Origin: Vicinamibacteria bacterium | Lineage (GTDB): Bacteria > Acidobacteriota > Vicinamibacteria > Marinacidobacterales > Marinacidobacteraceae | Assembly: GCA_963555995.3 (NCBI GenBank) | Contig: OY821641.1 | Coordinates: 1,760,001 to 1,824,000, forward strand | DNA: 64,000 nt | Direction of reading: 5' to 3' | Part shown: one piece after another, positions 15,339 to 28,404 of the stretch | Layout of the letters: each line of letters begins with the position of its first letter | Numbering within the stretch: position 1 is the first letter of the stretch | Translations under genes and position numbers: made by a program | The notes under the pieces: generated by a model | Database searches by the model: none | Seen by the model: only the letters and a program-made list of their open reading frames with translations | Told to the model about the DNA's origin: nothing

Positions 15339-15611
15339 TCCAAAAGGGTCAGACGAGATTTCCGCCCAATCCCGGTCAAAGTTGTTCGGAGTCGAAAAAA
15401 CACCCTTCGTTGGTCCGGAGGTTGCTTGCTCCCGCCGCCGCTCGATCCGGAGGGGGCTGCGGAAGGTCGGAGACCGGCTGGTACGCTTCGGACATGGCAT
15501 GGGAGCAGGGGCCGGGCGCGTTCCGTCCCCCGGACCGGGAGAGCCGGCGCCAGCGCCGTCTCCGCCCCTCCCGGTCCCCGTTCGATCTCGCCACGGAGGC
15601 ATCAAGCGGTC

Positions 15612-16148
15612 GTGTTCAACAATCCTTTTGGCTCATTTCACAACACCGTCGCCGAAGCAAAGGAAGAACGTGAACAACTCGACCGGCTGCTGACCGTTTC
15701 CACTCCGCGGGAACGGCTGCTCGTCGGGGCCATCGCTCTCCTGCTGCTGGGCTTCTCCGCCTGGCTCTTCCTGGGCGCCGTGTCCCGCAGCCTCGCGGTG
15801 GACGCCGTCGTGGTGGAGCCCGGCGGGACCCGGTCGCTGCAGGCGCTCGTCCGGATCGAACCCGGGATCGCGCCGCACATCAGGGCCGGGATGCCGGCGC
15901 GTATCGAACTGATCGTTGCCGACGGCGAAGCGGAGACACTGGCCGGAGAGATCACGACCATCTCCGCCGTTCCCCTGTCCGAGGGGCTGGGCGCGCTCGC
16001 CTCCGTCGCGGCCGTGTCCGCGTACCGCGTCCACATCGCGATCGAGGAGGGGCTCGCTCTCGCCCCCCGCGCGGGCCAGGAATGCCGGATCGTCATCGAA
16101 CTCGGCCGGCAGGCGCCCATCGCCCTGCTGCGAATGAGGCGCTTCTGA
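15612..16148 (+). CDS. NHLP/NHLM bacteriocin system secretion (adaptor-like) protein, short form
   Basis: 3' end of the 13068..16148 ORF from GTG 15612: EQLDRLLTVSTPR..TM..W.FLG, C-terminal IELGRQAPIALL; 178 aa, first gene of the export operon. Confidence 0.78.
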   Translation: MFNNPFGSFHNTVAEAKEEREQLDRLLTVSTPRERLLVGAIALLLLGFSAWLFLGAVSRSLAVDAVVVEPGGTRSLQALVRIEPGIAPHIRAGMPARIELIVADGEAETLAGEITTISAVPLSEGLGALASVAAVSAYRVHIAIEEGLALAPRAGQECRIVIELGRQAPIALLRMRRF

Positions 16149-16149
16149 C

Positions 16150-18360
16150 ATGCCGCCCCGCGCTCTGGGGGGAACCGGCGCCAAAGGCCCGCCGGACTCG
16201 CCAAAACAGCGCGTAGCCACGCCGATTCTGCTGCAGATGCACGCCTCGGAGTGCGGGGCCGCCTGCCTCGGGAGCGTCCTCGGCTACTTCGGCCGCTGGG
16301 TGCCGCTCACCGAACTGCGGGAGAAATGCGAGGTGAGCCGGGACGGGAGCAACGCCGCGAGCATCCTGCGCGCCGCCCGACACTACGGTCTCGAATGCGG
16401 TGGACTCAGCCTGCGCGGCGAGCAACTGAAACGGCTGGAGTTGCCGCTGATCCTGTTCTGGCAGTTCAGCCATTTCGTCGTCCTCGAGGGATTCGACGGC
16501 GGCAGCTTCTACCTCAACGACCCCTCCACGGGGCGACGCAAGCTCTCCGCCGACGAGTTCCATGGCGGCTACAGCGGCATCGCGCTTCGATTCAAGCGCG
16601 GCGACGGTTTCACCACCGGCGGCGAACCGCGCAGCCTGTTCCGGCAGTTGGGCGTGCTGCTCGCCGGATCCTGGAGCGTGCTCACCGGCCTGACTGCCTG
16701 CGCGCTCATGCTGACCCTGCTCGCGCTGGTCATTCCCGGAGTTCTCGGCGTTTTCGTGGACGACGTGCTGGAGAACCGGGGGCCCGTGGGCGGACTGGTG
16801 GCCGCCCTGCTGGGCGGCGGGATCCTGGTCTATGTCCTGTCCCTGCTCAAGCACCGCTTCCTGAAGCGGCTCGCCGTCCGGATTTCCGTGGCCGGCTACA
16901 GCCGGGGCGTGTCCCGGCTGCTGCGGTTGCCGGTTGCGTTCTTCGAGCACCGGTTGGTAGGCGACCTGACGGACCGGGTCTCGTCCATAGACCGGGTCGC
17001 GAAGAACCTGACGGACCAGTTCCTGGTGCTGCTCATTGACATGGCCATGAGCGCGGTGCTGCTCCTCGCCATGTTGGCCTACGACGGGTTGCTGACGCTG
17101 ATCGTGTTGGCCCTGGCGGTCCTCCACGGCGCGCTGGCCCACCTGCTCAACGGCGTCCAGGCCATTCGCACCCGAGCGATGCGGCGCGAACAGGGACTGC
17201 TGATCGGCGTCGGTATGCAGATGTTGGGTCATGCCGGCAACCTGCGCATGACGGGAGCGGACGACCGTTTCTTTGCGCGCTGGAGCGGTCAGCAGGCGCG
17301 TGAACTGCGCGCGCGACAACTCTGTGCGGAAGTGGGCGCCGTCCATGCCGCGCTTCCGGGGCTGGTCGCCGGACTGCGCAGTGCGGCGATCCTGGGCATC
17401 GGAGGGAGTCTGGTCCTCGACGGCGCCATGACCCTGGGGACGCTGGTCGGCTTCTATGTCCTGGCCGAGATGTTTCTGGCGCCCATCGGCCGCTTCCTGG
17501 AGTTCGCCGACGGGCGCCAGGCGCTCGAAACCGATCTGCAACGGCTGGACGACATCTCCAGGACCGAGGAAGATCCCGTCTTCCGCCGGCGAAGTCCGGA
17601 ATCGGAATCCATCCCCACGTTCCAGGGTCGGCTCCAACTGACCGGCCGGCTCGAACTGCGGGACATCACCTTCGGTTTCAACAGGGGCCGGCCACCCCTG
17701 ATCAAGAACTTCAACCTCGTGATCAAGCCCGGCCAGCGAGTCGCCGTGGTCGGTCCCAGTGGTTCCGGCAAATCAACCTTGGCGCGCCTGGTCTCGGGTA
17801 TCCATCAGCCCTGGTCGGGTGAAATCCTGTTCGATGGCCACCGGCGGGACGAGATTCCCGAGGAAGTGCTGCAGCAGTCCATTTCCATGGTGGATCAGGA
17901 GGTCGTGCTGTTTTCCGCGTCGCTGCGCGACAACATCACGCTGTGGAACCCGGCCGTTCCGGATGAAGCCGTCTTCGCGGCCACCCGGGATGCGCGGATC
18001 CATGACGAAATCCTGGTCAGGCCGCACGGGTTCGCGACCCTCGTTGAAGAAGGCGGCGCGAATTTCAGCGGCGGCCAGCGCCAACGACTGGAAATCGCGC
18101 GAGCGCTGGTGGGCCATCCGACGGTGCTCGTTCTGGACGAGGCGACCAGCGCCCTCGATGCGGCAACCGAGGAAGATGTGGACGATGCCCTGCGGCGACG
18201 GGGCGTCACCTGCCTGATCGTGGCCCACCGGCTGAGCACCGTGCGGGACTGCGACCAAATCATCGTGCTCGACAAGGGCGCCGAAGTGCAGCGCGGCACG
18301 CACGACGCCTTGATCGCCGATCTGGACGGCACGTATTCCAGGCTGGTCAGGACCGGCTGA
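16150..18360 (+). CDS. NHLP ABC transporter with C39 peptidase domain (PCAT)
   Basis: LQMHASECGAACL, HFVVLEG, YLNDP catalytic C/H/D; Walker A GPSGSGKST, FSGGQRQR, LVLDEATS. Confidence 0.95.
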   Translation: MPPRALGGTGAKGPPDSPKQRVATPILLQMHASECGAACLGSVLGYFGRWVPLTELREKCEVSRDGSNAASILRAARHYGLECGGLSLRGEQLKRLELPLILFWQFSHFVVLEGFDGGSFYLNDPSTGRRKLSADEFHGGYSGIALRFKRGDGFTTGGEPRSLFRQLGVLLAGSWSVLTGLTACALMLTLLALVIPGVLGVFVDDVLENRGPVGGLVAALLGGGILVYVLSLLKHRFLKRLAVRISVAGYSRGVSRLLRLPVAFFEHRLVGDLTDRVSSIDRVAKNLTDQFLVLLIDMAMSAVLLLAMLAYDGLLTLIVLALAVLHGALAHLLNGVQAIRTRAMRREQGLLIGVGMQMLGHAGNLRMTGADDRFFARWSGQQARELRARQLCAEVGAVHAALPGLVAGLRSAAILGIGGSLVLDGAMTLGTLVGFYVLAEMFLAPIGRFLEFADGRQALETDLQRLDDISRTEEDPVFRRRSPESESIPTFQGRLQLTGRLELRDITFGFNRGRPPLIKNFNLVIKPGQRVAVVGPSGSGKSTLARLVSGIHQPWSGEILFDGHRRDEIPEEVLQQSISMVDQEVVLFSASLRDNITLWNPAVPDEAVFAATRDARIHDEILVRPHGFATLVEEGGANFSGGQRQRLEIARALVGHPTVLVLDEATSALDAATEEDVDDALRRRGVTCLIVAHRLSTVRDCDQIIVLDKGAEVQRGTHDALIADLDGTYSRLVRTG

Positions 18361-21302
18361 TGCAGGACACGAGGCCGGCATACCCAACGCTGGCGGCACT
18401 CGCGGCTCGCGCGGGTACGTCCGTACCCTGCGCCGGCAACCTGCCGGTGAAACTCGACGACCCGGACGGCGTCTGGTTCATCGAACGGGGTTCGGTCCAT
18501 CTGTTCGTGGTCGAACTCGAGGACGGGGAGGAGTGCGCGGCGCCCCAACATCTGCTGCGTCGAGAAGCGGGCTGGCTGCTGCCGGGCGTCGCGCCGAGCG
18601 GAGGAGAAGATGACGAAGGCACGACGCTCAGCCTGATCGCCAAGGGGTTGCCGGGCACCCTGCTGAAGCGCCTGCCGGCGTCCCTGCTCTCGGAGCTGGA
18701 TCCGGCAGAACTGGCGGAACAGACGGACACCTGGTTGACCGCCGTCACCGACACGCTCGCCCGCTTCGCGGCCCGCCTGCCGCGGGCGACCGCGCTGGCC
18801 GAACCCGGCCGGACGCGGACCCTGGCGCCCGGCACGGTTTCCGTACGGCGGGGGGTGGTCTGGGTGTCCGGTCCGCCGCGCGGCGCCAGCCTGTTCATGG
18901 GGATCGTGGACCCGCTGGAATTCGCCGGGACGAGCGACCGGGAGGAAGCTCCGATGCCGTTGACGCGGACGAGCTGGCTCAGCCTGTTCGACGAGGCGAC
19001 CCTTGCCGGCGAATCCACCGCGTCCCTGGTGCGGCAAGGCATGCTGCTGCCCGCGCTCGCCGCCTTTCATGCGGTGGCGTTCTCCCTCGAACGCCACAAC
19101 CGGCGACTGGCCACGGTTGATGACGCGAATCTGGAACGCGCGCGGACGAGCAGTCGCCGCCGGGCCGCGAGGACGGCGCGGGAGCGGCTCTTCAACATCT
19201 ATGACCTTCCGACGGGCCGGGATGCCGGGGTCGAGGACAGGGCGCTGGCGGATGCCCTTCAGATCATCGGCCGCCGCGAAGGAATCGCGTTCCGGATTCC
19301 CGCGCGCTCAGCGCATTCGGATTCGCCGCTCAGCCTGTTGGACGTCCTCGATGCCTCCGGGGTCCGCGCCCGGCGCGTGCGCTTCAAGGCCGAGGGCGAC
19401 TGGTGGCACGGCGACAGCAACGCGCTGCTGGCGTTCCGAGCCGAGGACGGCCGGCCCGTAGCGCTCCTGCCGGGACTCTTCGGCCGCTACCGGGAAGTGG
19501 ATCCGGTCAGCAAGCGACGGGGCCGGATCAACGCGGACCGCGCCGCCGCGCTGGGCGAGGAAGCCTGGATGTTCTATCGGCCCTTCCCCTCGGGCAACGT
19601 CGAGCCGGCGGACCTGCTGCGAACGGCTCTCCATGGATCGGGCGTGGACCTCGCGCGGCTGGTGATCGCCGGGCTTCCCGGCGGTCTGATCAAGCTGGCG
19701 CCGGCGCTCGGGCTCGGATTCGTGGCGCACCAGGTCACGGCGGGCGGAACCGCCGGAGCGCTCTATGCCGTGGCCGCGACGGTGGCGGCGTTCGGCCTGC
19801 TCGGCGCGCTGCTCCACCTGCTGCAGAGCACGGCGATGATGCGGCTCGAGGGACGGTCGGCGTCGCGGGTGGAAGCCGCTTTCTGGGACCGCCTCATGCG
19901 GCTCTCGCCAAGCATCCTGCGGCGCCATCCGGCCGGCGACCTCGCCATGTCGGGAATGACGTTCCAGAACCTGCGCGACGGCCTGCGGGGGATCGTCGCC
20001 GACAGCCTGCTGTCGGTCCTTTTCCTGCTTCCGGTGCTCGGCGTCATCTTCTTCTACGACACCGGTCTCGGGGCCATTGCCCTCGGTTTCAGCCTGGTGT
20101 CGCTGCTGATCACCGCAGTCCTGGGCTGGCGCCAGATTGCGCCCTACGGGCGGATGGTCGCTACCGCCCGCCGCGTAGCCGGCCGGCTCTTCCAGATCGT
20201 GGGCGGGATCACCAAGCTGCGGGTGGAGAGCGCCGAAGGCTCGGCGTTCGCGGTCTGGGCGCAGGACTATCGCGAGCAGAAACGCGCGGAACTCGACCTG
20301 AGCGCGCTCGAAGGACACTCCCGAGCCTTCGGCGCCGCGCTTCCCTTTCTCGCCGGCGGGGTTCTGCTCTTCGCCGTGGTGGCGCTGGGCGACCGGAACG
20401 TCCCGGTCGGCGACTTCCTGGTCGTGTACACCGTCTTCATCGCTTTCCAGTCCGCGGTGGCCCAACTCGCCGAATCCTTCGGCGCCATCGCCGCCATGGC
20501 GCCGGCGTTCCGGCAGATGCGTCCCCTGCTCACCACGGTTCCCGAAACCGAGGGCGAGGGAGAGCCCGTTGACCACCTGGGGGGCGAGGTCCTCTTCGAC
20601 CGCGTTTCCTTCCGCTACGACCCGGACGGACCCCTGATTCTCGACGACGTCACCCTTCGCGCCCGTCCCGGCGAATTCGTCGCGATCACCGGTGAGTCCG
20701 GCGCGGGCAAGAGCACCCTGTTCCGGCTCGCGCTCGGCATTGACCGGCCCAGCGCCGGGGCCGTGTACTTCGACGGACGCGATCTGCGGCACCTGAACCT
20801 GAAGCAGGTGCGCCGGCAGATCGGCGCCGTACCGCAATCCGTCAAGCTCCATCCCCTCGACCTCTGGGACAACCTGGTCAGTCACCACGAAGGCGTGACG
20901 AACGAGGAAGTGTGGAAAGCGGTCCGGGTGGCCCAGGTCGAAGCCGAAATCAAGAGTATGCCCATGGGTCTGATGACCATGGTGGGCACCAGCGGGGCGG
21001 TCCTGTCGGGCGGCGAAAGCCAGCGCGTCACCATCGCTCGCTCGGTGATCGGCAGTCCGCGCATCATGCTGTTCGACGAGGCGACCAACTGGCTCGACAA
21101 CGAAAGCCAGGCAAAGGTCATGGAGAACCTCGCCGCCCTGACCTCCACGCGGCTCGTGATCGCCCACCGCCTGTCCACGCTGGAAGCGGCCGACCGCATC
21201 TACGTCCTGAAGGCCGGCAAGGTGGTCGAGAGCGGCTCCTTCACCGAACTCATGGAAGCCGAGGGAGCATTCCAGGAACTGATCAAGAGGCAGATCGCTT
21301 GA
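18360..21302 (+). CDS. Second NHLP ABC transporter subunit (cNMP-binding-like N-terminus, TM domain, ATPase)
   Basis: VWFIERGSVHLF, GVRARRVRF..DWW..D..ALLAF, GESGAGKST, LSGGESQR, FDEATNWLDNESQ; overlaps preceding stop. Confidence 0.92.
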   Translation: MQDTRPAYPTLAALAARAGTSVPCAGNLPVKLDDPDGVWFIERGSVHLFVVELEDGEECAAPQHLLRREAGWLLPGVAPSGGEDDEGTTLSLIAKGLPGTLLKRLPASLLSELDPAELAEQTDTWLTAVTDTLARFAARLPRATALAEPGRTRTLAPGTVSVRRGVVWVSGPPRGASLFMGIVDPLEFAGTSDREEAPMPLTRTSWLSLFDEATLAGESTASLVRQGMLLPALAAFHAVAFSLERHNRRLATVDDANLERARTSSRRRAARTARERLFNIYDLPTGRDAGVEDRALADALQIIGRREGIAFRIPARSAHSDSPLSLLDVLDASGVRARRVRFKAEGDWWHGDSNALLAFRAEDGRPVALLPGLFGRYREVDPVSKRRGRINADRAAALGEEAWMFYRPFPSGNVEPADLLRTALHGSGVDLARLVIAGLPGGLIKLAPALGLGFVAHQVTAGGTAGALYAVAATVAAFGLLGALLHLLQSTAMMRLEGRSASRVEAAFWDRLMRLSPSILRRHPAGDLAMSGMTFQNLRDGLRGIVADSLLSVLFLLPVLGVIFFYDTGLGAIALGFSLVSLLITAVLGWRQIAPYGRMVATARRVAGRLFQIVGGITKLRVESAEGSAFAVWAQDYREQKRAELDLSALEGHSRAFGAALPFLAGGVLLFAVVALGDRNVPVGDFLVVYTVFIAFQSAVAQLAESFGAIAAMAPAFRQMRPLLTTVPETEGEGEPVDHLGGEVLFDRVSFRYDPDGPLILDDVTLRARPGEFVAITGESGAGKSTLFRLALGIDRPSAGAVYFDGRDLRHLNLKQVRRQIGAVPQSVKLHPLDLWDNLVSHHEGVTNEEVWKAVRVAQVEAEIKSMPMGLMTMVGTSGAVLSGGESQRVTIARSVIGSPRIMLFDEATNWLDNESQAKVMENLAALTSTRLVIAHRLSTLEAADRIYVLKAGKVVESGSFTELMEAEGAFQELIKRQIA

Positions 21303-22606
21303 CGTCCATCAAGAAACCGACGGACGTCGCCGACTCTCTCCTCGCGAGAGCCGCCGAGGACAGCGACTTTCGCGGACGCCTGCTAGCGGAACCCAACGCG
21401 ACGGTGGAAACGGAACTCGGCGTGCGGCTTCCCGCCGGCCACGAGATTCACGTGCACGAGGAGTCCTATGCGGAGACCCACCTGGTGCTTCCGCCGCGCA
21501 GCAGACTCACCGCGGCCGAACGGCAGGAGGCGCAGACGGGCGCGGCGTCGCTCGCGTTTCTCAGGAAGACGCTCCACGACCCCGCGCCGCCGCTGCGTCC
21601 CCCGGCCCCCAGGCGGGCGTGGGCCCACCCGGGCGCGAGTCCCGCGGCCCTCGCGGAAGCGGCGCGGACGAGCATCCGCCGGGGTCTCGATTTCCTCGAG
21701 TCCACGACCGACGCGAACGGGGCGTTTCACTGCATCCGGTTCAACGTCGCCGATCCGGACATTCCACGGCATTTCGAACGGCCGCCCTTCGTTTCGGCCT
21801 TCTGCGCACTGGCCCTCGAACGCTGCGCCGACGCGCGGGCCCGGGCCATGTGCGCCGCCGCCCGGGCCTACCTGGCCGACACCATCGAACATCCCGGTTT
21901 GTGGCGGTACTACCGCCATCTCCCCCAGGACCTCGACAGCACGGCGCTCGCCTCCATGGTCACCGGGACCCACCCCTGGATCCTGCTGGGGAAGAACGTG
22001 CCGCCGATCCTGGCGAATCGCGACGAGGAAGGCCGTTTCCTGACCTGGGTGCTCGCGGCAGACGAACCGGACGTGGTGTCCACGTTCCGCATCGAAGCCG
22101 ACCCGGTGGTCAATGCGAACGTCATCGCCTACCTTGGCGACCATCCGGAAACCAGGGATGCGCGGCGCTGGCTGGAACGTCTCATCGCCGAAGGCAACGT
22201 CGAGGGCGCATCCAAGTGGTACCCCGACCGGGTCGCGACCTACTACGCGGCGGCGCGGGCGGCGGCGCGCGTCCGGCCGGCGCTGGACCCGCTGCGGCCG
22301 CACCTCGCGGACCGCATCCTGGAGCTCCGTGACGACCGGGGCGAGTTCGGCAACGTCCTGCAGACCGCCCAGGCGGTGTCGGCGCTCCACGACGTCGGTG
22401 GCCTGGAGCGCGTTGACGCGCATCGCCAGGTGGAAGCGCTGGTGGGTTCGCAACACGAGGACGGGAGTTGGCCGGAGCTGCTCGCGTTCGGTGACCAGAC
22501 GCTGAAGTGGGGCGCGGTAGGGCAGATCGGGCATGGGTCGGAAGCCGTGACCTCCGCGTTAAGCATCGAAGCGCTGGAGCGGCTCGTCGAAGTCCTGAAC
22601 GCTTGA
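21299..22606 (+). CDS. NHLP-leader domain fused to a class II terpene cyclase/prenyltransferase-beta-like (alpha/alpha barrel) domain
   Basis: Start re-called at TTG 21299 (TTGA overlap). N-terminal ~80 aa ARAAEDSDFRGRLLAEP..ELGV.LP....I.VHEE....HLVLPP aligns by eye with the precursor; then RRGLDFL, GLWRYY, DLDSTA, DPVVNANV, SQHEDGSWP (QW-like motif). Confidence 0.78.
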   Translation: MTSIKKPTDVADSLLARAAEDSDFRGRLLAEPNATVETELGVRLPAGHEIHVHEESYAETHLVLPPRSRLTAAERQEAQTGAASLAFLRKTLHDPAPPLRPPAPRRAWAHPGASPAALAEAARTSIRRGLDFLESTTDANGAFHCIRFNVADPDIPRHFERPPFVSAFCALALERCADARARAMCAAARAYLADTIEHPGLWRYYRHLPQDLDSTALASMVTGTHPWILLGKNVPPILANRDEEGRFLTWVLAADEPDVVSTFRIEADPVVNANVIAYLGDHPETRDARRWLERLIAEGNVEGASKWYPDRVATYYAAARAAARVRPALDPLRPHLADRILELRDDRGEFGNVLQTAQAVSALHDVGGLERVDAHRQVEALVGSQHEDGSWPELLAFGDQTLKWGAVGQIGHGSEAVTSALSIEALERLVEVLNA

Positions 22607-22612
22607 CCGCCT

Positions 22613-24922
22613 GTGGAAGACGTCACGCCCCGGCAAGGGATCCTCACCCGGACCACCCCCGCCGACCGGGGCCTCGTCAGGCTTCCGGCGCTGACGCCGC
22701 ATCTGGATTTCCGCGACATTGGCGAAGGGCGGACCCTGCTGGTCTCCGAATCGTTCAACACCCTGTTGCACGGTGAGCTGTTTGCCGCTCTCCTGCCGCT
22801 GCTCGACGGCCGCCGTTCGTGCGAGGAGATCGTCGCGGCCGTGGAGGGGACCCATGCCGCGGTGGATGTCCTCACCGCGCTGGCTTCGCTGTCCGCCAGG
22901 GGTTACGTCGTCTCGGGCGACCATGCGCTGGACCGGCGCCGGGCGGCCTACTGGTCGTCGCTCGGCGCGTCGCCGCGCTGGGTCGAGGCGCGGCTGGCGG
23001 AGTCGCGCCTCGCGGTCGAAGGCGACGACGGCCGGTTCACCCGGCGCCTCGAGGAGAACGGCGCCGCGCTCGGGCCCGGGGATCCCGACCTCACCGTGGT
23101 GGTCTGCGACGACTACCTCGAACCGCGCCTCGCCGAGGTGAATCGGCGCCGGCTCGAGGCGGGAGCGCCGTGGGCCGTGGTGCGGCCGCGCGGCATGGAG
23201 GCGCTGTTCGGGCCCGTCTTCCGGGCGGATCGTCGAGGGCCCTGCTGGGATTGTCTCGCCCATCGTCTCGGCGCTCATCGGGAAGTCCACCGTTTTCTCC
23301 GGAGCGTCGCGGGCGAGAAAGCCGCCTTCAGGCCCTTCGCCGCCCAGCCCGCCGTTCTCGAAGCGCTCTACGGGCTGATCGCGGCGGAGATCGTCAAGTG
23401 GATCGTGCTGCGCGACGCGGCGCCGATCCACGACCACGCGCTCACCGTGAACGTCGGCGCCTTCGGAACTTCGCGACACCCGGTGCGCCGCCGGCCGCAG
23501 TGCCGGGCCTGTGGTGATCCGGCGCTCCATCGCCCGGACCGGCCGCCGGTTCCGCTCGCTCTGCAACCGAGCCCCAAGACGCATCGCACGAGCGGCGGCG
23601 CGCGCTCCGTGGCGCCGGAAGTCACCCTGGCGAAGTACGGCCACCTCGTGAGCCCGATCAGCGGGGTGGTGACCTGGTTGCGGCGCACCACGGACGCGAG
23701 CGATTCCTGGCTGCACGTCCACTGGGCCGGCAGCAACCCGGCCATCACGAGCCGGAGCCTGAGTTCGCTCCGGCGCAGCCTGCGCAGCAAGAGCGCCGGC
23801 AAGGGCAGCACCGCGGAGCAATCCCGGGTGAGCGCGCTGTGCGAAGCCATCGAGCGCACTTCGGGCGCCCATGCCGGTGACGAGATCCGTACCCGCGGGC
23901 GGTTCACCGAGTTCGCCGGAGAAGACGAAGCGATCCATCCCAACGACGTGCAACTGTTCAGCGACCACCAGCTCGACAACGCGGCGGACATCAACGCGAA
24001 GGGCCATCCTTACAACATCGTGCCGCCGCTGTTCGACCCCGACGCCCGCATCGCCTGGACCCCGGTGTGGTCGCTGACGCAGCAGCGGCACCGCTTTCTG
24101 CCGACGTCCATGCTCTATTCCATGCCGGCCGAAGCGCGCGGGCCGCAAGACCTGATCGCCGATTCGAACGGCTGCGCCGCGGGCAACACGGTGGAAGAAG
24201 CGATCCTGCAGGGCTTTTTCGAACTGGTCGAGCGCGATGCGTTCGCCATCTGGTGGTACAACCGGCTGCGCGTACCGGCGGTTGACCTGTCCAGCTTCGA
24301 CGACGACTACCTCGCCTCGGCCCCGGACTACTACGCCCGTCGCGAGAGGGAGGTGTGGGTGCTCGACGTCACCTCGGATCTCGGCGTTCCCGCGTTCGTC
24401 GCGCTCTCGCGCCGGCCGTCCGCCCCCACCGAGGACATCATCTACGGCGCCGGCGCCCACGACGACCCGCGCATCGCGGCGCTGCGGGCGATCTGCGAAC
24501 TGAACCAGTGCCTCACCTGGCTGCCGGACCCCGGGAAGCGCGACGGCCGGCCCACGATTGATGACCCGCTGGCGCTTCGGTGGTGGAAGACCGGGCGGCT
24601 CGCGGACTGTCCCTGGTTGGCGCCGGCCGCCAGCCAGCCGCCCTCGACGGCCTCCCGGTATGCGGCGGTCCCGTCAACGGATACCCGCGAGGACGTGGAG
24701 CGGTGCCGCGCGCTCGTCGAAGCCAGGGGCATGGAGTTCCTGGTGCTGGACCAGACCCGGCCCGACATCGGAATGCCGGTGGTGCGGGTCATCGTGCCGG
24801 GGATGCGCCATTTCTGGGCGAGGTTCGCTCCCGGGCGCCTCTACGACGTGCCGGTCAGCATGGGCCGCCGGGAACATCCGCTTGCCGAAGCGGATCTGAA
24901 CTCCGTCCCGGTGATCGCGTGA
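22613..24922 (+). CDS. srpC: Fused TOMM cyclodehydratase (leader-binding/E1-like + YcaO), SrpC-like
   Basis: GPCWDCL and PQCRACG, HLVSPISGVV, SAGKG, ALCEAIERTS, SNGCAAGNTVEEAILQGFFELVERDA, VVRVIVPGMRHFW, C-terminal NSVPVIA; srp name recalled from literature, orthology untested. Confidence 0.92.
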   Translation: MEDVTPRQGILTRTTPADRGLVRLPALTPHLDFRDIGEGRTLLVSESFNTLLHGELFAALLPLLDGRRSCEEIVAAVEGTHAAVDVLTALASLSARGYVVSGDHALDRRRAAYWSSLGASPRWVEARLAESRLAVEGDDGRFTRRLEENGAALGPGDPDLTVVVCDDYLEPRLAEVNRRRLEAGAPWAVVRPRGMEALFGPVFRADRRGPCWDCLAHRLGAHREVHRFLRSVAGEKAAFRPFAAQPAVLEALYGLIAAEIVKWIVLRDAAPIHDHALTVNVGAFGTSRHPVRRRPQCRACGDPALHRPDRPPVPLALQPSPKTHRTSGGARSVAPEVTLAKYGHLVSPISGVVTWLRRTTDASDSWLHVHWAGSNPAITSRSLSSLRRSLRSKSAGKGSTAEQSRVSALCEAIERTSGAHAGDEIRTRGRFTEFAGEDEAIHPNDVQLFSDHQLDNAADINAKGHPYNIVPPLFDPDARIAWTPVWSLTQQRHRFLPTSMLYSMPAEARGPQDLIADSNGCAAGNTVEEAILQGFFELVERDAFAIWWYNRLRVPAVDLSSFDDDYLASAPDYYARREREVWVLDVTSDLGVPAFVALSRRPSAPTEDIIYGAGAHDDPRIAALRAICELNQCLTWLPDPGKRDGRPTIDDPLALRWWKTGRLADCPWLAPAASQPPSTASRYAAVPSTDTREDVERCRALVEARGMEFLVLDQTRPDIGMPVVRVIVPGMRHFWARFAPGRLYDVPVSMGRREHPLAEADLNSVPVIA

Positions 24923-24931
24923 GGAGGCGAC

Positions 24932-26044
24932 ATGCAACTTGACGCGGCGGTCGCGCTGACGGAGAACCGCCTTGCGGAGGAGGGCGGCGTCCTGAGTGAC
25001 CTGCTCCGGCACTTCCGAGACCGGGTCTCACCGGTTCTCATCGGCGATCCGGAGTGGGAACTCGTCCTCGAGCGCGCCGGAAGACTTCCGATCACGATGG
25101 GCGCGCTTCCCTTCGGCTTCGAACTGCCGCTGCACGCGCAGGCGCCAAGGGCGGACCTGGGGGTCTCGCTGGCGAGCGGGACCAGAACGGCGGCGTTCTT
25201 CCTGGAACGCGCCCGGGACCCGAAGGACGCGACCGCGAGAGCGATTGGCCGGCTGTTCCGCCGGATGGATGCCGAGGACTCGCCGCTACGCGAGATCGTC
25301 GGCCGCAAGCTGATGCTGGAGTACGACATCGGCCCCGGACGGGGCGACGACGACTCGCTTCCCGGCATGTTCCTGCGGCCCGGGGAACGCCCGATCCTCG
25401 GCGCCCGCGGTCAGGTGAACGATGTCCGGCTGGTGGTGGACGCGCTCGCCTCCTGCGTCGGTTGGGAACTGACCGGCGCCGAGCGGCGAAACGTCGAGCG
25501 GGTGTACCTGGCGCAGCCCGAAGACACCCGCATGGATTCGTTCGGGGTGTTTCCCTCCCGCTCGCGGACGATCCGCCTCGCGGTGATGGGGTTCCAGTCA
25601 CCGGCGGCGTTCGCTTCCTGGCTCGAAGCGATCGGGTGGCCGGGTCGGCTGTCGGCCGCCAATTCCGTGATCGAACGCTTCCGGGAACGCGCGCACGTCG
25701 TCCGAACCGGGGCGAACCTCGACGTGCGGGATGCGGGTGTCGGCCCGACCCTCGGCCTGACGCTCATCGTCAAGCAGCGGTACACGAAAGGTTCCCGGTA
25801 CTGGCTCGACGGCCTCACCGACTGGGAACCGTTCCTGGAGGCCCTTGGCCATGAAGAACTCGTGTTTTCGGACAAGCTGGCCGCGCTCGCCGGCTGGGTT
25901 TCGAAGCCGACGACCCTCTTCGCGAAGTCCGGGCGCTATGTCCTGCTACGCGGAATCCATCACATCAAACTGGTCGTCTCCGAGAACCAGCTTCGCCAGG
26001 CCAAAGCCTACGTGTTCCTGGTGCTTTCCGGCGGAATCCCCTAG
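24932..26044 (+). CDS. Hypothetical RiPP tailoring protein, candidate PT-barrel (ABBA-like) prenyltransferase
   Basis: GAGGAGG RBS, co-linear with YcaO; alternating helix/beta-hairpin pattern GFELPL..ADLGV, LMLEYD, SFGVFPSR..IRL, NLDV..GPTLGL, HHIKL..AKAYVF; CDS is secure, function is inference. Confidence 0.5.
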   Translation: MQLDAAVALTENRLAEEGGVLSDLLRHFRDRVSPVLIGDPEWELVLERAGRLPITMGALPFGFELPLHAQAPRADLGVSLASGTRTAAFFLERARDPKDATARAIGRLFRRMDAEDSPLREIVGRKLMLEYDIGPGRGDDDSLPGMFLRPGERPILGARGQVNDVRLVVDALASCVGWELTGAERRNVERVYLAQPEDTRMDSFGVFPSRSRTIRLAVMGFQSPAAFASWLEAIGWPGRLSAANSVIERFRERAHVVRTGANLDVRDAGVGPTLGLTLIVKQRYTKGSRYWLDGLTDWEPFLEALGHEELVFSDKLAALAGWVSKPTTLFAKSGRYVLLRGIHHIKLVVSENQLRQAKAYVFLVLSGGIP

Positions 26045-26131
26045 AAACGGTGCGAGCCTCGGAGCGCCGTCAGCGCGGGTTTGCTGTGAAAATGCAGTCC
26101 CGGCGAAACGTCAGCCAGCGCAATGGGGCCA

Positions 26132-26337
26132 CCGGCCTGGAACGCCGGCTTCAGCCGGCACCCGCTGCGCGACAGCACAGCGCACGGCGCGACGTTGACC
26201 TGCGGGGTGGTTCTTTTTCTGCGCCGACCTGAACGGACCGGACGTTCCGGTAATAGCGTTCCGTACGGCCGAACCGCTACGCATCGCGCGCGGGCCTCCG
26301 GCCGGCGGTGCCGGCTGAAGCCGGCGTTCCAAGCCGG
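26132..26337. repeat. REPIN-like element inside the RiPP island
   Basis: CCGGCCTGGAACGCCGGCTTCAGCCGGCAC ... GTGCCGGCTGAAGCCGGCGTTCCAAGCCGG, ~30 bp inverted termini. Confidence 0.8.
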
Positions 26338-26450
26338 GCACGCCAAGTGACCGAACGGCCTCACGCTCTCTGCGAGCCGTGGCCCGGATGCCAGCGCGAG
26401 GCTGGCGCTCCTACCCGGTGAGGAAGCCGGCTAGCTGCCGGTTGTCGAAC

Positions 26451-26702
26451 CTACCAGCAGCAGCAAAGGCCGGCCGAGATCGCTTCGAGCTGCTCCTCGG
26501 TGATGTTCGGGTCCGGCGGTAGCGCGAGATGCACCGTCTGCATGTCGCTCTCGTGGACCTGGATGCTCATCGAATCCGGAATCGTGATGCCGAGTTCCGC
26601 GCTGATCGCGCCCTTCGGATCTGCCAGAAGCTGACGCCGGAAATCCGCGTCGAGGGCGGACTTGTCGACAATCTGCTGCAACATTTCGTCGCCGTTTCTC
26701 AT
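26451..26702 (-). CDS. srpE: NHLP-leader (proteusin) RiPP precursor, core LCCCW, SrpE-like
   Basis: DADFRRQLLADPKGAI.ELG..IP....VHE....HLALPP...TEEQLEAISAG|LCCCW; AAGGAGG RBS; double-glycine-type AG cleavage site. Confidence 0.95.
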   Translation of the reverse strand: MRNGDEMLQQIVDKSALDADFRRQLLADPKGAISAELGITIPDSMSIQVHESDMQTVHLALPPDPNITEEQLEAISAGLCCCW

Positions 26703-26743
26703 GGTGTGTCCTCCTTGATGTCAGGCGCGGGCCAACCGCGCCA

Positions 26744-26771
26744 CGTATAACAGGATTGAATAGTAACACAA
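26744..26771 (-). promoter_or_regulatory. Putative sigma70-type promoter of the precursor gene
   Basis: AT-rich patch; minus strand TTGTGT-16 nt-TATACG with TGn extension, ~42 nt upstream of ATG. Confidence 0.4.
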
Positions 26772-27014
26772 CGCTGTGGGAACGTCTGGTGAACCGCAAC
26801 CGCGGGCCTTCGCTTCCCGTGCCCGGGCCGGCGGTGAGGGACCGTCCGGCCTCCCGCCGCGCCCGAGCCCGCCTCCGGCAAACGACCGCCCGGCGCCGCC
26901 TCCGTGACCCGAAGGGCGATGGTGCTAGTGTGGTGCCCCGGAAATGGCGCACGCAGCACATCCGGGCATCCCGCGCGAGGGTCCACTGGCCGAACCCCGG
27001 GGAAGGCGTCGAGG

Positions 27015-28289
27015 GTGATCCAACCGGGCAGCAACTCGCTGCGGAAGATCGCGGTCATCGGGCGAGGAACCGCAGGGTCGCTCGCGGCCGCCGCGGTGAC
27101 CCGTCTTCACCCTGACGGCGACCACGAGCTGCACCACATCCATGACTCGCGCATTCCGGTCATCGGAGTGGGTGAAGGCAGTTGGCCGAGCCTGGTCGGG
27201 CACCTGCAGCAACTGACGGCCCTGCCCCACGAAACGGTCCAGCAGCGCCTGCAGGGAACGCGCAAGTACGGCGTGGCCTTTGAGGGGTGGGGACGGCGCA
27301 ATCGGGACTTCACCCACTACTTCACGCCGCAACAGGTCTCCTACGCCTACCACCTGTCCGCCGACCTGCTGGCGGAGCTGCTGCACGAGAGCACGCGCGC
27401 GCGCCACGTCAACGCGAAAGTGCTCGGGATCACCCGGGTGGACGGCGGCGCCGAGGTCGAATTCGAGGATCGGGCCCCGGAGCGCTACGACCTGGTCTTC
27501 GATGCCCGCGGGTTTCCCCGTGACCTGGACCCCGACCGGCACATCCCAATTTCCTTCATCCCGACGGACACCGCCGTCATCCGCCGCTGTCCGGCGATCG
27601 TCGGGGACGGGCGGGACGGCCCGGTCCTCCAGCACACCTATACCCGCGCGGTGGCGCGCCCGCACGGCTGGATCTTCGTCATCCCGCTCGTGGCGCACAC
27701 GTCCTACGGGTACATCTTCAACCGCGACGTATCCGGCCTCGCCGAAGTCGAAGCGGACTTCGACGCGTTCCTCGAAGCCGATGGCGCGCCGGAGTTCGAG
27801 CAGCGCGCCGTCATCCCGTTTCCCAATTTCGTCCACCGGCAGATCTACGACGGCGCGGTGGCCCGCATCGGAAACCGGGCGGCCTTCATGGAACCGCTCG
27901 AAGCCACCGCGATCGTGTCCGCCCAGTTCCAGATCGGGATGGTCCTGCAGACCCGCCTGAACCGTCCGGTCGAGCATCTCGAGCGCGACGCGCCGGTGAT
28001 CAACCGGTTTCTCGTGAACGAGATGCTCGCCTACGGCCTGTTCGTCGGCTGGCACTACTCCTGCGGCTCCCGCTACGACAGCGGCTTCTGGCGCTACGCT
28101 CGCGACCAGGCCTGGCCGAGGCACCGCCAGACGGCGGACCCCGAGGCGGTGGGTTGCGCCGCGCTCCGCAAGTTCGACGCAATGATCGAGTTGCTGAACC
28201 GGCCCGTCATCGCCAGGGCCGACTGGGATCGGATGTGCGCGGTCCCTCTCACCAGCTACGCCCAGATGTCCCAGGGTCTGGGCTGCTGA
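27015..28289 (+). CDS. srpI: Flavin-dependent tryptophan-halogenase-like enzyme (peptidyl-Trp halogenase, SrpI-like)
   Basis: IAVIGRGTAG FAD motif, IGVGEG, TRKYGV (catalytic Lys position), GWIFVIP, AFMEPLEATAI; start re-called at GTG 27015; divergent from precursor. Confidence 0.88.
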   Translation: MIQPGSNSLRKIAVIGRGTAGSLAAAAVTRLHPDGDHELHHIHDSRIPVIGVGEGSWPSLVGHLQQLTALPHETVQQRLQGTRKYGVAFEGWGRRNRDFTHYFTPQQVSYAYHLSADLLAELLHESTRARHVNAKVLGITRVDGGAEVEFEDRAPERYDLVFDARGFPRDLDPDRHIPISFIPTDTAVIRRCPAIVGDGRDGPVLQHTYTRAVARPHGWIFVIPLVAHTSYGYIFNRDVSGLAEVEADFDAFLEADGAPEFEQRAVIPFPNFVHRQIYDGAVARIGNRAAFMEPLEATAIVSAQFQIGMVLQTRLNRPVEHLERDAPVINRFLVNEMLAYGLFVGWHYSCGSRYDSGFWRYARDQAWPRHRQTADPEAVGCAALRKFDAMIELLNRPVIARADWDRMCAVPLTSYAQMSQGLGC

Positions 28290-28404
28290 TCCTGGTCGCC
28301 GACGGCGGGCCGGGACGGCCGCCGGCCCGGCGCGGGTGCGCGGGGCGCGGCTCTGGTAGACTCACGTCCCGCATGGCGGGCATCCGGGACCGGGCGGCGA
28401 CAGC

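Follow-up and report, generated by a model that had tools for sequence, protein, structure and literature searches.

The gene at 24932-26044 of the window (the whole 64,000-nucleotide stretch of DNA that was analysed, C1:1760001-1824000) encodes P0001, a stand-alone protein with a predicted barrel fold that likely transfers a polyprenyl group, most likely farnesyl, to the tryptophan of an LCCCW peptide core, after which a neighbouring cyclase would close the rings. The probability of this reading is put at roughly two in three. The gene lies in a 12.7-kb block (window 15600-28300) with a GC content of 68.7%, compared with ~73% in the flanks, that contains the following features:

15612..16148, + strand, short HlyD-like protein (TIGR03794, E 8e-4, weak); conserved in related loci; start uncertain
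16150..18360, + strand, C39 peptidase/ABC exporter of NHLP type (PF03412; TIGR03796 at 821 bits, just below the cut-off of 853)
18360..21302, + strand, second NHLP-type ABC exporter (TIGR03797 at 675 bits, just below the cut-off of 709)
21299..22606, + strand, P0272, 435 aa, NHLP-leader-like N-terminus and predicted monodomain class II terpene cyclase
22613..24922, + strand, E1-like/YcaO cyclodehydratase (SrpC-like), 769 aa (PF02624, E 8e-97; TIGR03604 and TIGR03882 over cut-off)
24922..24927, + strand, Shine-Dalgarno sequence AGGAGG, 4 nt 5' of the ATG; overlaps the YcaO stop codon (24920-24922)
24932..26044, + strand, P0001, predicted ABBA (PT-barrel) peptide prenyltransferase, 370 aa, ATG start
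26451..26702, - strand, P0271, NHLP precursor (SrpE-like), 83 aa, core LCCCW; convergent with the prenyltransferase gene
26904..28289, + strand, flavin-dependent Trp halogenase (SrpI-like; PF04820, E 2.6e-44); true start may be 27015

An NHLP precursor ending in LCCCW, a YcaO and a flavin halogenase occur together here and, judged from sequence, the cluster is the srp cluster of sponge symbionts. The available text of the srp literature (PMC10286304, PMC10858898, PMC12537861, PMC9426513) describes srp in sponge microbiomes, with SrpE as an NHLP precursor with the core LCCCW, SrpC as a YcaO and SrpI as a halogenase, and reports only thiazolines and bromination; no srp prenyltransferase or cyclase was found in that text or in the available part of bioRxiv 2023.06.09.544420. 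A literature search, whose scope excluded the founding srp and NctPC papers, supplements and figures (any of which may carry the label), likewise found no prenyltransferase assigned to srp. The cluster is flanked by type IV pilus-like genes and a CTP synthase, and its lower GC content fits horizontal gain.

The reading frame itself is well supported. An earlier note on this DNA had proposed a 370-residue frame with its own ribosome-binding site, and the AGGAGG 4 nt before the ATG and a coding-type GC content by codon position (0.72/0.47/0.84) agree with this. Homologs numbered 918 among 7,996 scored candidates, and the family comprises 456 representatives at 50% identity. The gene, which is single-copy in its genome, is under purifying selection (median dN/dS 0.22, range 0.13-0.34, from 79 related and non-independent pairs against the window gene, with the broken gene at L029 left out). 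A chance open reading frame or pseudogene was rejected on the basis of the many homologs, the coding-type GC and the purifying selection. A genome scan yielded 369 relatives among 396 pattern matches, and the best 80 of the 369, from records titled Acidobacteria, Alpha- and Gammaproteobacteria, Gemmatimonadota and others, were used for locus counts; one of these 80 close copies is broken (L029). Decayed pieces were seen at several loci: the gene is broken at L029:4642-5754 and L102:7751-8810, a family member stands with a mere YcaO remnant at L075:9282-11119, and the precursor is frameshifted at L011:11246-11519.

The protein had been called unannotated, and it was indeed without a match in Pfam or NCBIfam profile searches; PDB sequence searches, run with P0001 itself and with two profiles, retrieved no ABBA enzyme up to E 10. 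The 98-member alignment did not match the Pfam ABBA families, and assignment to the cyanobactin F-family (PF19156), DMATS (PF11991) or NphB-type (PF11468) enzymes was rejected, with 0 of 98 members matching at E up to 0.1. The PF19156 and PF11991 profiles found nothing in the genome, which is uninformative as the controls were likewise blank, and PF11991 matched in 0 of 301 genomes around G301. In the genomes around G301 a 56-row profile matched, besides G301's own gene, nothing but cyclases.

The fold was sought by structure prediction. ABBA enzymes are described in the available text of PMC7973389 as having ten antiparallel strands in a helix-wrapped barrel composed of five alpha-beta-beta-alpha units, and the predicted P0001 model (98 sequences; pLDDT 94.9, pTM 0.93) is likewise a ten-stranded barrel of five units, with hairpins at residues 61-66/75-81, 126-131/145-148, 200-207/211-221, 258-266/269-279 and 334-350/353-366 and helices before each. 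Every strand motif quoted in the earlier note was found and falls on the strands of these five hairpins (GFELPL at residue 62, ADL at 74, LEYD at 129, SR at 209/211, IRL at 214, LDV at 263, LGL at 274, HIK at 344 and KAY at 358). With this model as the Foldseek query, all 43 rows listed were ABBA prenyltransferases (best E 1.1e-5), and in a structure search against 48,161 chains the 19 with a Z of 8 or more were all ABBA enzymes, the next row having a Z of 5.9. The closest was MpnD (Z 16.5, rmsd 4.4 over 302 residues), and PatF, PagF and DciF scored 11.4, 11.1 and 10.4, respectively. The matches span the whole chain yet are loose (rmsd 4.2-4.9, TM 0.4-0.5, identity 6-15%), as is expected for a distant branch. 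The named Atlas clusters (Trp_DMAT, DUF5838 and PTase_Orf2; recognition 1343) are a weak pointer in the same direction. The PT-barrel on which the original proposal depended was thus returned by the model, by Foldseek and by the 48,161-chain search, and P0001 is almost certainly a barrel protein, as far as a predicted model can tell. The five helix-hairpin repeats that had been proposed were borne out as a structural repeat in the model, but not in the sequence: profile comparison of the ten unit pairs gave probabilities of at most 4.8%, compared with at most 2.5% for reversed controls. As no sequence similarity rose above these controls, the five units are a repeat of topology only.

The barrel carries a conserved set of polar residues. 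Glu64, Asp75, Lys346 and Tyr360 are invariant in 56 of 56 distant relatives (22% mean column identity), Glu130, Asp132, Arg210, Arg215, Asp264, His344 and Lys358 are kept in at least 90% of the same 56, and all of these positions are invariant in 80/80 close sequences (the best 80 of 369). Conserved polar positions and hydrophobic columns take turns along the strands, a pattern that fits polar side chains pointing into the barrel lumen. In ABBA enzymes, basic residues and Tyr bind the phosphate and Asp62 of NphB binds Mg2+ (PMC7973389, available text); the roles suggested below for the P0001 residues were assigned by strand position only, as there was no residue-level structural alignment. ABBA enzymes that act on indoles use a Glu as base, and the superfamily lacks the (N/D)DxxD motif. 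In P0001 the (N/D)DxxD motif is absent. It is very likely that P0001 is an active prenyltransferase.

The family also occurs fused to cyclases. Five of the 301 genomes from the window's phylum have the P0001 family, and in two of the five a P0001-like domain is fused N-terminally to a class II cyclase. A search with the fused domain found 28 longer proteins, 23 of which carry PF13243. The P0001 family profile scores all 28 at E 1e-36 to 1e-4, and reversed copies reach no more than 3.9 bits. The fused cyclase matches MstE at E 2e-97. The P0001 family and the fused domain were matched by profile-profile comparison with a probability of 99.7% over 322 columns. No longer homologs, of 743-2120 aa, were picked up when the 98-member alignment was used as the query; this blank is meaningless, since the fusions, found another way, are mostly 660-790 aa. 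In a quick, unrooted tree of 54 rows, which gives no order of events, P0001 belongs to a group of 20 rows (support 100), at a long distance from the group that holds the fused, cyanobacterial and Azospirillum proteins. The idea that the srp pair is a recently cut NctPC-like fusion was rejected, since P0001 and the cyclase are each only remotely related to their fused counterparts, which indicates that the srp pair is a separate branch.

Further family members were found in other settings. Fusions of the prenyltransferase to an MstE-like cyclase lie at L096:6826-14196 (- strand; G002) and L095 (G106), in a lasso cluster that has B1, B2, the cyclase and, in addition, a PRMT-like methyltransferase; its candidate precursor contains Tyr, Phe and His and lacks Trp. 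Four plasmid records, from Nostoc, Pseudanabaena, Azospirillum and Acaryochloris, hold additional relatives; those of Nostoc and Pseudanabaena adjoin LanM and Nif11/NHLP precursors, and that of Acaryochloris is a broken copy. In the Pseudanabaena LanM cluster (L101:7986-9779, + strand) the fusion partner of the domain is annotated as a 2OG-Fe(II) oxygenase and the precursor ends in Trp. The Nostoc plasmid (L100:1425-11080) has LanM, a PoyD-type epimerase, a family member and four precursors without a core Trp, three of them with Tyr, and the Azospirillum plasmid (L103:635-9080, a record without annotation) has seven NHLP precursors near the family member, six of which end in Trp. Genome G110 encodes four paralogs (L091-L094), each near NHLP precursors with a core Trp. 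Their neighbours are an FAD oxidase, CoA-transferases or a stand-alone cyclase, the last being 37% identical to the cyclase of the window.

The cyclase partner of P0001 is P0272, whose start codon overlaps the upstream stop. Its model (pLDDT 79.9) is predicted to have the beta-domain fold of class II cyclases and it has a DxDD-type motif, Asp211-Leu-Asp213-Ser214, that is DLDS in 69/69 copies and aligns with the DADx of the fused cyclases, which in turn aligns with the DADT of MstE. Foldseek matched P0272 to drimenol synthase, monodomain cyclases and MstE at E 2.5e-10 to 1.8e-8. The P0272 profile finds drimenol synthases (E 1.5e-5), not MstE, and the srp cyclase is distant from the fused cyclases (profile-profile probability 86.5%). 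The N-terminus of P0272 (21299-21600) matches TIGR03793 at E 5e-12, just below cut-off, and has many invariant residues in 40 copies. This NHLP-like domain may mimic a leader and dock on other enzymes, and its presence suggests that the cyclase works in complex with the peptide machinery.

Locus comparisons tie the genes of the cluster together. A cyclase-like gene, the partner anticipated in the earlier note, was found in 55 of the 56 well-covered loci, which are those among the best 80 that have 9 kb or more to either side of the gene; genes lying further off may escape the 10-kb flanks. Counts for the other components of these 56 loci were 54 for the second exporter, 53 for the YcaO, 51 for the first exporter, 44 for the precursor and 33 for the halogenase. 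That note had placed the gene directly after the YcaO, which is correct for this cluster and for 66 of the 80 related loci (best 80 of 369) but not for another 12, in which the cyclase immediately precedes it. The stand-alone architecture was as proposed, P0001 being a single-copy gene of its own and the cyclase separate. In 49 of the same 80 srp loci (best 80 of 369) a desaturase-like protein is encoded between the cyclase and the YcaO, although not in the window cluster; at L013:5244-7640 (+ strand) its 798 aa comprise a fatty-acid-desaturase domain and a part that weakly resembles GlnE. An MMPL transporter is found in 25 of these 80 (e.g. L013:11790-14132, - strand). The recurrence of the desaturase-like protein and the MMPL transporter fits a lipophilic product. 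LolA-like and DUF1302 genes accompany many srp loci too (L069:11708-12706; L064:12552-13781) and, with the MMPL gene, would suit the export of a lipid-like product. L069 (14914-21078) and, likewise, L080 have a second paralog (47% identity) and a second precursor with the core WCCCG(N/Q), together with an MMPL gene and two methyltransferases. At L064:14890-15144 (+ strand) a second precursor has the Trp-free core MCCCGI and lies beside a housekeeping-type ubiA; there is no second barrel gene at L064.

The context is that of a RiPP pathway, with a long-leader precursor, a core Trp and a class II cyclase. The LCCCW end is present in 58 of 62 precursor-like open reading frames. At nine distant loci a precursor could be named (none was named at L095 or L097-L099), and seven of these have a core Trp (L069, L091-L094, L101 and L103); the named cores of L096 and L100 lack it, so the P0001 family is not strictly Trp-specific. 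According to the available srp literature, SrpI brominates C6 of the indole, needs a near-terminal Trp and does not brominate free Trp. As there is one core Trp, the brominase and the prenyltransferase would share the same residue, and the prenylation site would have to be compatible with SrpI-like C6 bromination, which leaves C5, C7, C2, C3 or N1. P0001 probably acts on the core Trp.

A class II cyclase substrate needs a chain of at least C10. The earlier note had held that no polyprenyl synthase lies in the window and that the donor would come from primary metabolism. The two matches in the genome are at C1:2084762 and C1:2345694, outside the window, and a farnesyl diphosphate synthase is over cut-off elsewhere in the genome, which also encodes a long-chain synthase; no GGPP synthase was over cut-off in the genome (partial sequences scored). 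With polyprenyl synthases only elsewhere in the genome, the donor would be supplied from outside the window. Since the cyclase requires C10 or longer, farnesyl is the favoured chain, its odds against all others being about even.

By analogy with MppC, P0001 would bind the leader-attached precursor, probably after thiazoline formation by the YcaO. Departure of the diphosphate would be helped by Lys346, Lys358, Tyr360, Arg210 and Arg215, as in other ABBA enzymes, with Mg2+ probably held by Asp75/Glu130/Asp132, and the allylic cation would then alkylate the indole of the sole Trp, with Glu64 as a putative base. The class II cyclase would subsequently protonate the terminal alkene, and ring closure would follow. 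Bromination, cleavage of the leader by the C39 exporter and export would all come after cyclisation.

Other explanations for the barrel protein were weighed against this pathway. P0001 could be an active prenyltransferase with an acceptor other than the core indole, such as the freed N-terminus of the core, its C-terminal carboxylate or a small molecule (bromo-Trp or indole). The best structural matches are the small-molecule indole prenyltransferases MpnD, CymD and DMATS, MstE acts on a prenylated benzoate (per structure entry titles), and in linear cyanobactins the N-terminus is prenylated after leader removal; the Trp-free cores at two of nine distant loci and the competing claim of the brominase on the sole Trp also point this way. 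However, nearly all relatives with a readable context are in RiPP clusters (proteusin, lanthipeptide or lasso), most named cores carry Trp, often at the C-terminus, and MppC, in the available account, refuses free Trp (PMC12715784), as does SrpI, so that another acceptor is considered unlikely.

The order of the two steps might also be reversed, with the cyclase acting on free prenyl diphosphate and the barrel enzyme transferring the cyclised terpene to the peptide. The top Foldseek matches of the cyclase are drimenol synthases, whose substrate is free FPP, and these are the enzymes reached by its profile (E 1.5e-5), MstE not being among them. MstE and the monodomain cyclases match nearly as well by structure, however (E 1e-9 to 2e-8), drimenyl diphosphate is non-allylic and hence a poor donor, and a copalyl-type donor needs GGPP, for which no synthase was at cut-off among the partial sequences scored. 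The NHLP-like domain of the cyclase, which suggests a complex with the peptide machinery, and the available description of NctPC, which transfers first and cyclises second (PMC13290415), count against it as well, and the reversed order is unlikely. The least probable explanation is a barrel without transferase activity, serving as a scaffold or leader-binding partner, or with other chemistry. The identity to solved prenyltransferases is 6-15% and no family profile matches; PatF, which has the barrel, is not known to transfer prenyl groups. Against this are the Glu, Asp, Arg, Lys, His and Tyr residues that stay invariant on the strands at identities of 20-25%, the intact partner cyclase, which requires a prenylated substrate, and the fusions with NctPC architecture, in view of which an inactive barrel is very unlikely.

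If P0001 is a prenyltransferase, the mature srp product would be a lipidated, probably polycyclic peptide-terpene hybrid with predictable masses, so that a product search becomes a direct co-expression or metabolomics test. The srp precursor is, in the available part of bioRxiv 2023.06.09.544420, among the most highly transcribed biosynthetic genes of high-microbial-abundance sponges. A fuller proposal, put forward tentatively at a little under even odds, is that the product of srp, one of the RiPP loci most widespread in sponge microbiomes, is a brominated tris-thiazoline peptide with a cyclised sesquiterpene on its single Trp, by way of a leader-binding ABBA clade and an NHLP-docking cyclase; the published thiazoline/bromo-Trp peptide would then be an intermediate. 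A P0001 family profile would cover a family missed by Pfam (456 representatives at 50% identity), and NctPC/MppC-type chemistry would extend to YcaO pathways. The surprise is limited, since there are precedents for this class of enzyme, for a partner cyclase and for the split layout.

Among known systems, the cluster resembles published srp (Nguyen et al., JACS 2021, as far as available) in its LCCCW precursor, YcaO, flavin halogenase and spread over many phyla. P0001 is predicted to have a barrel in common with the cyanobactin F-family (PagF, PatF, DciF) and the DMATS/NphB-type enzymes (Z 10-16.5), without a PF19156, PF11991 or PF11468 match. Its membership in the NctPC/MppC family is probable, the comparison having been made with published descriptions of those enzymes.

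MppC of the Moorena producens mpp cluster is described as a stand-alone ABBA enzyme that catalyses leader-dependent geranylation of Trp at C5, acting after ring formation (PMC12715784), and the prenyltransferase mppC and the terpene synthase mppD are reported as separate genes (PMC11791876); the split architecture proposed in the earlier note is therefore not new. In both clusters a long-leader precursor is accompanied by an SrpI-like halogenase and by a terpene synthase gene of its own. They differ in that mpp encodes a lanthipeptide whose leader is Nif11-like and whose two Trp residues are one brominated and one geranylated, whereas srp has one Trp for both, and an insertion that precedes strand 9 in the cyanobacterial and fused relatives is missing in P0001. 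NctPC is an ABBA prenyltransferase fused to an MstE-like cyclase, with a Trp acceptor and low similarity to cyanobactin enzymes (PMC13290415; Hubrich et al., Chem 2024; available text). P0001 shares homology with the N-terminal domain of fusions that are built as NctPC is described to be, and with genes in cyanobacterial LanM clusters. Compared with the available account of NctPC, however, the srp enzymes are encoded by separate genes, with P0001 in a distinct clade on a long branch, the cyclase is of another lineage and carries an NHLP-like domain, the context is that of a YcaO and a brominase, and the donor is probably not GGPP.
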